A stretch of 64,000 bases of DNA from a virus. Where the stretch lies: IMG/VR virus record IMGVR_UViG_3300045988_123958, one strand, 5' to 3'. Below the pieces are notes generated by a model, which searched no databases, was not told the origin of the DNA, and saw only the letters and a list, made by a program, of their open reading frames with translations. The translations under genes were made by a program, and so were the position numbers. Positions 30,870 through 32,171 of the stretch are shown here, piece by piece (position 1 is the first letter of the stretch; every line of letters begins with the position of its first letter).

Positions 30870-32171
30870 TTACACCAACCCTTTATCTTTCATAATTCTA
30901 TAAAGAACTACAATCATTTCTTCACGAGTCATAAATTTTTTATACATTTTACGATTTAAATTATCGCCTTTAATATATCCTTTACTTTCAGCCCAAGTTC
31001 TTTCCGTATCAGACCAAGAACTTGCATTTTTTTCGGCTTGTTGATTTAAATAAACTTCCATCATCTCATTAAATTTATCCTAAGTCATATCTTCATCCTC
31101 CTCATTAATATTTATATTATCACCAATTTTTTGTTTAAATAACTACCATTGGTAATCGCCACTTGTTCTATAATAGCTATTCATGTCAGTTCCGCATAAT
31201 GGACGAGGGCATAATTTACCAGTCACATCATAGTGGCGAATAACGCGGTTCGCTGGTATATTGTATTTCTACATTAATTGCTTTACTAATTGTACCGTAT
31301 TTTCTAATGCTCTTGGATCAAAATACCAATCAGTATCACTGGCTACAATATTAGATTTATTTATTTTACAGGGTCTTACTTCAATTCCAATAGAATTGGC
31401 ATTTCTACATTCAGGATGCTTATATCCTTTTCTTGTGCCACAGTGCCAAGCAATATCTTCATCTTTAACGCTACGATAAATAATATCTTTTTCATCAACA
31501 CAATAATGAGCTGATGATTTAGCGACAGGATTTTTAAAATAATTACTAATATTTTTTGCAGTCCCTAAAGAACCAAAATAATGTATTACAATATATTTTA
31601 TTTTTCTATTATTACCTTTTTGATAATTAGATGTTGTTAAATTATCTACAATTTTCATATCTTCACCTTTTCCTATAAATTGATCATATATTTCAACTCC
31701 ATAATATAATCTCTACTATTGGATTTTTAAACTCTAATCTTTTGGTCGTTCAAACTATGTTAAAACTATATTTGAAGCAGTCTATATATCTTTACAATTT
31801 ATTAAAGTATTCCAAACGGTAGGATAATATGTAGAAAGTTGATAAATTAAAAATTCAAGTTGTGTATTTAAGTTTCCTATTGAAGTATTTTTCTTTTTTG
31901 TAAAATCATATAATTGTTTTTTAAGACTCCAATAGGTCCATTGAGCTAAACCATATCCAGCTTTATCATAAATGAAATTAGTATATTTACCATTATCTAC
32001 TTGTTTTGTATACTATTCATCATTTAATCCAAGTGTCTTTTCAAAACTATTTTGAAGATTTTTTGGATTAAAATTTGATTCAGCTTTTAAGTTTCCCATT
32101 AGCCCGGCTGTTCCATAAGGATTTTTTATTTGTTTATATAAATAATTCCAAGCTATTTCAATATTAGTCAT
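30870..32171 (-). CDS. multidomain endolysin: tail-lysozyme-like N-domain + amidase_2 (PGRP-like) + C-terminal domain; 9 in-frame TAG
   Basis: ATG at 32171 with AGGAGG SD; GLMGNLKAESNFNP...GYGLAQWT; IVIHYFG...AHYCVD...AWHCG; ORFs 31269..31658 and 30870..31064 share a frame; 9 in-frame TAGs including IQ[TAG][TAG]RLYY. Confidence 0.65.

Follow-up and report, generated by a model that had tools for sequence, protein, structure and literature searches.

In-frame TAG codons in the endolysin and homing endonuclease genes of a large human-gut phage match the TAG share of a relative's tail genes

We analyzed a 64,000-nucleotide stretch of DNA from a human-gut tailed phage (IMG/VR record IMGVR_UViG_3300045988_123958; hereafter the window), with particular attention to the gene at 30870–32171, which encodes an endolysin and carries nine in-frame TAG codons. 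The phage has a genome of about 193 kb, and many of its relatives are represented by contigs of 190–197 kb. The window is contained at 100% identity in a 130-kb human-gut metagenome contig (ENA ERZ913377, k127_37263), which ends 751 bp beyond it. Its 91 genes were called with TAG as a sense codon and annotated by Pfam and PHROGs; all of them lie on the minus strand, to which the window coordinates given here refer, and in the close IMG/VR relatives gene orientation reverses past the dUTPase region, to the left of the window. An initial reading of the sequence by itself (the sequence-only reading) had proposed that lysis and selfish genes are enriched for recoded TAG, and that lysis is thereby delayed until an amber suppressor accumulates.

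The endolysin gene (g053) comprises 433 sense codons followed by TAA and encodes a Phage_lysozyme2 domain (7e-26), an Amidase_2 domain (6e-25) and a C-terminal putative wall-binding tail. As the sequence-only reading had counted, there are nine in-frame TAGs (codons 53, 130, 139, 146, 152, 153, 301, 343 and 364) and no internal TAA or TGA; codons 152 and 153 form a TAG-TAG doublet (31713–31718) at the end of the lysozyme domain. Among 10 close relatives that are 97–100% identical in the gene, a set that includes the window's own source contig, TAG is kept at eight of the nine sites, and the doublet is present, while the remaining site is CAA or CAG in seven of the 10. A syntenic orthologue in a more distant lineage (contig L113; 72% identical) has a single TAG at the place of the doublet and four TAGs altogether, which make it the most TAG-rich gene of its locus, and only one of 12 TAG sites, counting those of both genes, is common to L113 and the window. 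An adjacent TAG pair would arise in the endolysin by chance with p = 0.16, and the doublet alone is therefore not significant. Both Pfam domains extend across TAGs, and thousands of database proteins have the same lysozyme2 and amidase architecture, including single chains of 442–445 amino acids from standard-code temperate phages; full-length standard-code homologues also cover the doublet region as one chain. Because the two domains run through the TAGs and such single-chain homologues exist, we read the open reading frame (ORF) as one endolysin gene, neither a pseudogene nor a gene pair. The proposal that TAG-interrupted ORFs are decaying pseudogenes, or that lysozyme and amidase are separate genes divided at the doublet, was rejected and is hardly credible. 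A Shine-Dalgarno-like AAAGGTGA and an ATG at codon 175 do follow the doublet, and the standard code does fragment the ORF, a public contig (L014) being annotated in such pieces, but TAG is the sole in-frame stop type although TAA outnumbers TAG about threefold in each frame of the window, frameshifts are absent, the reading frame is preserved together with the TAG sites in the 10 relatives, and the lysozyme domain holds four further TAGs ahead of the doublet.

TAG in this genome is a sense codon, most likely for glutamine (genetic code 15). Counting TAG as sense raised the coverage of the minus strand by long ORFs from 46.4 to 56.9 kb, and each of the 90 complete genes has TAA (68) or TGA (22) as its stop, with the proviso that a genuine C-terminal TAG stop is unrecognisable when ORFs are called in this way (for example at codon 97 of 103 in g075). 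When all window genes were aligned with those of relatives, TAG was exchanged for CAA or CAG at 19 of the 27 variant codons, and conserved domains also continue across TAGs in the RecJ-like, DnaB, radical SAM and GIY-YIG genes. For the endolysin, 120 aligned database homologues told little about most TAG columns, since the majority covered about 40% of the query; these columns were judged instead from full-length homologues and from codon comparison among relatives. Homologues that are mostly standard-code place glutamine at the conserved columns 139 and 146 (VLLQFER and AD-QS), and L113 has glutamine at four of the eight window TAG sites that it does not share. Genes that bear TAG need a suppressor for a full-length product.

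Directly downstream of the endolysin lies a holin-like gene, g054 (30473–30868), which starts 1 nt past the endolysin stop with only a weak Shine-Dalgarno sequence ahead of it and adjoins the endolysin in every relative examined. Its 131-residue product has two hydrophobic segments, as judged by eye, and a charged tail; no Pfam or PHROG family matched it. The gene contains three CAA codons and no TAG. The N-terminus of the endolysin (MTNIEIAWNYLYKQIKNPYG) is, also by eye, not hydrophobic and has neither a signal nor a signal-arrest-release (SAR) sequence. The claim that the TAGs delay lysis was not supported in its simple form, as the holin-like gene, the usual lysis clock, is free of TAG, and delaying an endolysin with no signal or SAR sequence would be insufficient by itself. 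A second Phage_lysozyme2 protein, the membrane-anchored g085, which carries a transmembrane segment, has no TAG among its 11 glutamine codons. The endolysin and holin-like genes form a unit between two intrinsic terminators, one at 32198–32229 that separates the PhoH-like gene g052 from the endolysin (13-bp stem and T-run, −17.1 kcal/mol) and one at 30433–30469, past which a strong sigma-A-like promoter lies at 30333–30305. Between the former terminator and the ribosome-binding site of the endolysin no sigma-A-like promoter was found.

The 73 TAGs of the window are confined to 22 of its 91 genes (chi2 = 223.5, df 90, p = 2e-13), which leaves 69 genes with none against 47 expected. The endolysin has the highest count of any window gene, nine against 1.7 expected (binomial p = 5e-5 by length; Fisher p = 1.5e-3 on glutamine codons), and the homing endonucleases, with 13.5% of the codons, account for 37 TAGs of the total (p = 4e-14). 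Expressed as a share of glutamine codons, TAG accounts for 0.363 in the homing endonucleases and 0.360 in the endolysin, and for 0.052 in the replication and repair genes and 0.025 in the annotated auxiliary genes. The topoisomerase, ligase, RNase H, primase, Sak4, major vault protein (MVP) and von Willebrand factor A (vWA) genes were all confirmed to lack TAG. The first three groups lie together at 21223–28623 (GyrB-like g058, GyrA-like g062, RNase H g061 and ATP-dependent ligase g063), with the TAG-rich g059 intervening and provided that RNase H starts at 25394, where the public gene call puts it; the others are the DNA primase g081 (9534–10637; PHROG DNA primase, 1e-33), the Sak4-like AAA_24 ATPase g074 (14809–15804) and the MVP-like g017 and vWA/DUF2828 g016 (51081–55222), in which glutamine is encoded by CAG only and each gene has its own promoter and terminator. 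TAG is also carried by the RecJ-like g084 (six), g066 (four), the radical SAM gene g049 (three), the N-terminal DnaB part g076 (two) and several genes of no assigned function. Composition fails to account for this pattern: the PhoH-like, primase, DNA polymerase III and topoisomerase genes are AT-rich, with equal GC content at third codon positions (GC3), and contain no TAG.

The homing endonuclease genes are spread along the window. Those of the GIY-YIG type are g003 (62382–63026, four TAGs), g042 (39609–40349, five TAGs; missing here in several relatives), g057 (28620–29369, three TAGs), g059 (25986–26675, five TAGs), g067 (18682–19578, eight TAGs), g077 (12252–12929, four TAGs) and the GIY-YIG/NUMOD3 gene g093 (588–1376, three TAGs). 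The HNH gene g012 (58362–58928) has three TAGs and the HNH or intron-encoded-nuclease-like g079 (10824–11519) has two, and in several endonucleases the first TAG falls within 6–33 codons. No TAG occurs in the LAGLIDADG gene g009 (60143–60748), which has 11 glutamine codons, or in g089 (4501–5016), which has no glutamine codon at all and is hence uninformative; the HNH label of g089 comes from motifs read in the sequence, a Pfam-only scan having returned no match. The counts therefore range from 0 to 8, rather than from 2 to 6 in every homing endonuclease as the sequence-only reading had stated.

Several of these genes interrupt others. The GyrB-like gene interrupted by g059 is uninterrupted (636 amino acids) in L014 and L017–L020, and g066 and g068 (GIY-YIG/T5orf172-type), which are interrupted by g067, form a single 337-amino-acid gene in relatives; g077 lies between the DnaB parts g076 and g078, and g093 lies between pieces of DNA polymerase III alpha. 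The split genes occupy 11583–14150 (DnaB; g076/g077/g078), 25986–28623 (GyrB; g058, g059 and a 58-residue GyrB_C piece), 18306–20550 (g066/g067/g068) and, for DNA polymerase III alpha, which is in at least three pieces, 1–2845 of the window and 12575–16133 of L009; uninterrupted versions of split genes occur in relatives. Conserved CCCGTGGGAA-type motifs stand upstream of several endonuclease ORFs. Rfam detected no group I intron at gathering score in the window, and the presence of introns around the endonuclease genes is inferred from the split genes and from insertion polymorphism. The LAGLIDADG element (59983–60974) is found at 96–97% nucleotide identity in contigs L001–L004, which otherwise have almost nothing in common with the window; three of these four contigs have a tRNA(CUA) of their own, and the element is free of TAG. 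Its distribution points to recent horizontal spread.

The TAG share of tail genes was obtained from an IMG/VR relative, 3300045988_126226, of which 50.5 kb were merged without conflicts; regions shared among relatives are about 92–96% nucleotide-identical. In this relative, an opposite-strand tail module of 38.8 kb contains 19 genes, every one of them with TAG (19/19), at a share of 0.359 of glutamine codons and 16 TAGs per 1,000 codons. It includes a tape-measure-type protein of 2,750 amino acids (PF10145, 2e-28; 77 TAGs), proteins of baseplate size and a fibre-like protein of 2,582 amino acids; PHROG scans of the module yielded almost no named matches, and the tape-measure identity comes from Pfam. 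A tail-fibre block upstream of the window has an intermediate TAG share of 0.20–0.29. The late set consists of tail genes, and the major capsid, tail-tube, portal and terminase genes and about 55–60 kb of the family genome lie outside it. Against the tail module, neither the endolysin (odds ratio (OR) 1.00) nor the endonucleases (OR 1.02) differed by Fisher's test (p = 1). With a TAG share equal to that of the tail module, neither group is enriched over late genes; both are late-coded islands within an early/middle arm. The proposed enrichment of lysis and selfish genes accordingly stands relative to their neighbors and disappears relative to tail genes, and it does not extend to the holin-like g054 or to g085.

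Eighteen near-identical sigma-A-like promoters (TTGAYW-N17-TATAAT; TTGAYWTTTTT...TATAAT) were found on the minus strand, preceding TAG-free genes; their −10 elements end at 63313, 61349, 61163, 59561, 55299, 53618, 50997, 46778, 43389, 42451, 41373, 37149, 30305, 22464, 21205, 20953, 17330 and 14737. Eleven of them lie in an apparently early region, 37352–62322, in which 38 non-endonuclease genes (6,540 codons), among them MVP-like, vWA-like, GmrSD-HNH, methyltransferase, RNA ligase and flotillin-like genes, have no TAG among 174 glutamine codons; four endonucleases embedded in the promoter-dense region carry 12 TAGs. The endolysin, g066 and g050 lie behind terminators with no such promoter. 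Among non-endonuclease genes, the TAG share was 15.5% behind a promoter-less terminator and 4.7% in promoter-led genes (OR 3.7, p = 5e-4). Ahead of the endolysin and the tail genes, no separate late-promoter motif was found; these starts share only a terminator, a T-run and (T)ATAGAAAGGAG, which is indistinguishable from ribosome-binding-site context. TAG density tracked the predicted temporal class, at 0% in the early region, about 5% in replication genes and 36% in the tail, endolysin and endonuclease genes.

Two further regularities accompany this architecture. The sigma-A-like promoters (TTGAYWTTTTTAWAAAAA...TATAAT) often stand directly after strong hairpin terminators, forming compact cassettes around single genes, and two of them precede tRNA genes. 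Glutamine codon use also falls into three tiers (CAG only, CAA, and CAA with TAG) that are not explained by GC3 alone. The TAG-free genes g015 (55375–56541), g016 (53696–55222), g017 (51081–53579), g031 (45003–46382), g045 (37352–38737) and g072 (15952–16899) encode nearly all their glutamine with CAG, at a GC3 of 0.28–0.42 (the MVP-like gene has 28 CAG and no CAA codons), and the other window genes favor CAA, at a GC3 of 0.10–0.25.

No amber suppressor tRNA was found within the window, whose six tRNA genes (Cys, Lys, Gly, Ser, Ser and Thr; 57755–63180) all have anticodons other than CUA. A tRNA(CUA) was present in 10 of 10 close relatives examined (nine from IMG/VR and L027), with an Rfam tRNA score of 52–56 bits, between tRNA-Val and tRNA-Tyr in an array of at least 20 tRNAs. 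In L027, which is 94–96% identical to the window over the shared parts, it lies about 11.5 kb past the position of the window's right end. Two alleles of this tRNA occupy one locus, a form of 73 nt and a form of 90 nt with an extra arm (L027 3621–3748; L037 13417–13506; L043 13580–13652), and both have an unpaired 1:72, a G73, no encoded CCA and the same sequence directly 3', which resembles a hepatitis delta virus (HDV) ribozyme of the theta type. This HDV-type core (ACCUCCUCGCGG...GGGUAA) gave a full-model match to RF02682 (HDV-F-prausnitzii) at L027 3694–3748 with 26.1 bits and E = 0.005, which is under the gathering score of 44; it was seen in relatives only, and a search of the window turned up no theta-ribozyme core. 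A search of IMG/VR with the exact pattern of the suppressor tRNA of L025 returned only that contig. ARAGORN further reported an 80-nt 'tRNA-SeC (tca)' just past tRNA-Tyr (L042 14794–14873; L043 14931–15010), which could be an opal-reading tRNA or an artefact; in L043, Rfam did not call it a tRNA at gathering score. A RAGATH-33 RNA adjoins tRNA-Leu at L027 17581–17709 (122.7 bits, above the gathering score) and was not detected in the window.

We consider it the more probable account that this is a code-15 phage in which TAG use is split by expression class, through avoidance in early genes and drift to a plateau in late ones. Host release factor 1 would terminate ribosomes at TAG unless the phage tRNA(CUA) were charged and abundant enough, and neither full-length endolysin, with its first TAG at codon 53 and the doublet at codons 152–153, nor the endonucleases could be made ahead of the code switch. 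Selection would chiefly purge TAG from genes translated before or without the suppressor, and in genes expressed only late TAG would drift up to a mutational plateau shared among them. Blocked translation of the endolysin and endonucleases would then be a real consequence of the code without necessarily being a tuned lysis timer. Avoidance and drift are favored by the identical share of 0.36 in three unrelated gene classes, by a crude estimate from AT bias that places the equilibrium TAG share at about 0.45–0.47, and by the turnover of TAG sites between the window and L113; drift is likewise favored by the absence of TAG from the holin-like gene and of a secretion signal from the endolysin, and by the suppressor's early-type promoter in relatives.

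Several points weigh against this account. The tail-module figures are those of a relative and not of the window genome, the equilibrium estimate has the coarseness just mentioned, and the temporal classes, including the early assignment of the promoter-dense region, are inferred from promoter and terminator architecture and gene function. Among replication genes, RecJ-like g084 and DnaB g076 carry TAG, as do the promoter-led genes g046, g047 and g049. The LAGLIDADG g009 and the membrane-anchored lysozyme g085 each have 0 of 11 glutamine codons as TAG (p = 0.007 at a share of 0.36), so that a pure class rule falls short. The suppressor tRNA was not seen in the sequence of the window genome, whose source contig ends ahead of the corresponding position; the genome presumably carries the same suppressor as its relatives. 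In the relatives, a sigma-A-like promoter matching in type those before TAG-free genes stands about 1 kb upstream of tRNA(CUA); the suppressor may thus be transcribed from the start, in which case any delay would depend on its accumulation or processing. The same promoter speaks against a simply late-transcribed suppressor. Of the suggestion that suppressor availability sets expression timing, what holds is that TAG tracks the predicted class and that a terminator with no host-type promoter precedes the endolysin; the TAG-free holin-like gene and the turnover of sites do not fit it.

A tuned lysis timer, in which TAGs, and above all the doublet, were selected to restrain the endolysin and the intron endonucleases and the suppressor level sets the time of lysis and homing, is a reading we regard as doubtful. 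It draws on the position of the endolysin at the top of the window's TAG counts and, in the 72%-identical lineage, of its locus; on the retention of the doublet in the 10 relatives; on the placement of the endolysin behind a terminator in the replication arm, where a translational safeguard would be useful; on the early first TAG of several endonucleases; and on the statistical preference that crAss-like and Agate phages show for recoding these two kinds of gene. Termination at TAG could moreover lower translation of the holin-like gene by coupling, its start lying 1 nt after the stop. Yet extra enrichment over the tail baseline is nil (OR 1.0), the holin-like gene has no TAG, early synthesis of an endolysin with no secretion signal would usually do no harm, TAG sites fail to persist between lineages, the doublet fits chance, the relatives' suppressor stands under an early-type promoter, and g085 and the LAGLIDADG gene are free of TAG. 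Some kind of gate may still operate: in both lineages the endolysin carries more TAGs than any other gene of its locus, its neighborhood is not late and its stop lies one base from the holin-like start. One such version, which seems unlikely to us, makes the nine ambers a polar gate on the TAG-free holin-like gene and the suppressor-tRNA concentration the actual lysis clock: translation of the holin-like gene would depend on ribosomes that have traversed the entire endolysin, the tRNA(CUA) concentration could be set by ribozyme processing, and the intron endonucleases would likewise stay silent during early splicing and translation of their host genes.

Two further explanations leave timing aside. 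TAG might be shunned in highly expressed or dosage-critical genes because of the cost of suppression and tolerated at low expression. The TAG-free MVP-like, vWA-like, flotillin-like and g072 genes do combine a strong CAG-only bias with higher GC3, as in strongly expressed genes, and homing endonucleases are typically produced at low levels; we nonetheless judge this very unlikely, since the highest TAG loads are found in tail structural genes (all 19 of the module, with 77 in the tape-measure gene), in a set that leaves the major capsid and tail-tube genes outside, and since many AT-rich genes with no such bias, such as the primase, PhoH-like and topoisomerase genes, are free of TAG too. Alternatively, the TAG-free genes could be recent arrivals from standard-code donors and the TAG-rich ones old or moving among recoded phages. 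The TAG-free g015–g017, g031 and g045 are GC-richer and use CAG over CAA, the endonucleases are mobile and polymorphic in presence, and temperate phages with the standard code have members of the endolysin family as well. Such an origin is extremely unlikely to account for the pattern, given that the topoisomerase, ligase, primase, Sak4, PhoH-like and polymerase III genes share a low GC3 (0.16–0.26) and a preference for CAA with TAG-rich genes, that the TAG-free state is preserved in relatives, and that the widely spreading LAGLIDADG element is free of TAG although it resides in suppressor-carrying phages. Composition alone and horizontal origin alone were both rejected as causes.

The window holds further gene groups of interest. 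The MVP-like protein (51081–53579; 832 amino acids, with major-vault-protein shoulder and repeat domains) adjoins a DUF2828/DUF7788 (vWA-like) protein, and the best matches in the phage collection are three 'uncultured phage' records of 462–735 kb, at 39–41% amino acid identity. At 34328–36656, a 234-amino-acid protein composed mostly of Cys/Gly/Ser-rich repeats (CSGSCSGGCVGCSASCR...) is encoded two genes upstream of a 430-amino-acid radical SAM enzyme; both genes contain TAGs, both are missing from L018, and the two may be a peptide-modification pair. The TAG-free genes at 39038–47690 comprise the RNA-ligase-like g031, the AAA_33 kinase g041, the metallophosphatases g028, g038 and g043, the NADAR gene g036, the phosphatase-family g033 (PHROG 335), the ParE-like g029 and a T7 gp5.9-like RecBCD inhibitor (g035), a combination that hints at RNA or tRNA repair and the handling of ADP-ribose. 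At 55375–57724, the gene for an EcoRI-like adenine methyltransferase (6.6e-98) adjoins that for a GmrSD_N and HNH protein; both genes are TAG-free, and the pair may serve anti-restriction or defence.

Should TAG share prove a reliable marker of temporal class, sequence data would suffice to infer when uncultured recoded phages express their genes, and lysis genes and selfish elements within early operons would be recognisable as translationally late. The family is common in human gut metagenomes, its holin-like protein occurring in 647 blocks of a public collection, and this abundance provides enough material for comparison at the level of gene families. For annotation, the lesson is that standard-code gene calling fragments the endolysin and endonuclease genes.

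The arrangement of the endonuclease genes has a counterpart in bacteriophage T4. Late promoters drive I-TevI of T4, and early transcripts have its ribosome-binding site occluded. Here, too, endonuclease genes lie within early or middle essential genes (GyrB, DnaB and DNA polymerase III alpha) and are expected to be translated late; in contrast to T4, the barrier would consist of in-frame ambers instead of promoter choice and RNA structure, and the introns are predicted ones.

Closer parallels come from phages with reassigned stop codons. The timing idea had been attributed by the sequence-only reading to other stop-recoded phages, and it has indeed been published, with examples from an amidase and an intron endonuclease. 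Borges et al. (bioRxiv 10.1101/2021.08.26.457843) described crAss-like, Lak, Jade, Sapphire, Agate, Garnet and Topaz clades with phage-encoded suppressor tRNAs, in which structural and lysis genes use the alternative code and replication genes vary. In the same work, the few families with preferential recoding include the crAss-like lysozyme-type amidase and, within an early Agate gene, a group I intron endonuclease, which recoding should restrain until late. The phage studied here resembles these in its use of code 15 (TAG as Gln), its large, low-GC gut-metagenome genome, the restriction of in-frame stops to a subset of genes and the recoding of structural genes. It differs in belonging to a separate lineage, as judged by megablast and by DNA polymerase III alpha: a megablast of 24 kb against deposited phages gave no match, and its polymerase III alpha shares about 40% amino acid identity with those of Enterococcus phages, Phass-1 and SPbeta-like phages. 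In contrast to the phages of Borges et al., the endolysin and endonucleases here do not exceed the late-gene baseline, and the lysis cassette is part of the replication arm and apart from the tail module; the window annotation scans found no release factor, aminoacyl-tRNA synthetase or 'code-change module' beside it.

Kienbeck et al. (Nat Commun 2024, PMC10879173) reported minimal HDV-like (theta) ribozymes that flank suppressor tRNAs and proposed that they take part in the code switch; the CCA-less tRNA(CUA) of the relatives is similarly followed by an HDV-type core, with a match below the gathering score (26 versus 44 bits). Phass-1 ('Phassvirus'; PMC10607447) is a human-gut phage that also reads TAG as Gln, has many tRNAs including tRNA-Sup(CUA) and a polymerase III alpha, and has TAG in about 28% of its ORFs; unlike the present phage, Phass genomes measure 136–138 kb instead of about 193 kb, the two polymerase III alpha proteins are 39% identical, and nucleotide similarity is absent. 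The phenomenon is thus one already described, to which the window adds a further lineage and a quantitative refinement: the equal share of 36% sharpens the question put to the published model, namely whether such TAGs are a selected lysis timer or a by-product of their avoidance in early genes.

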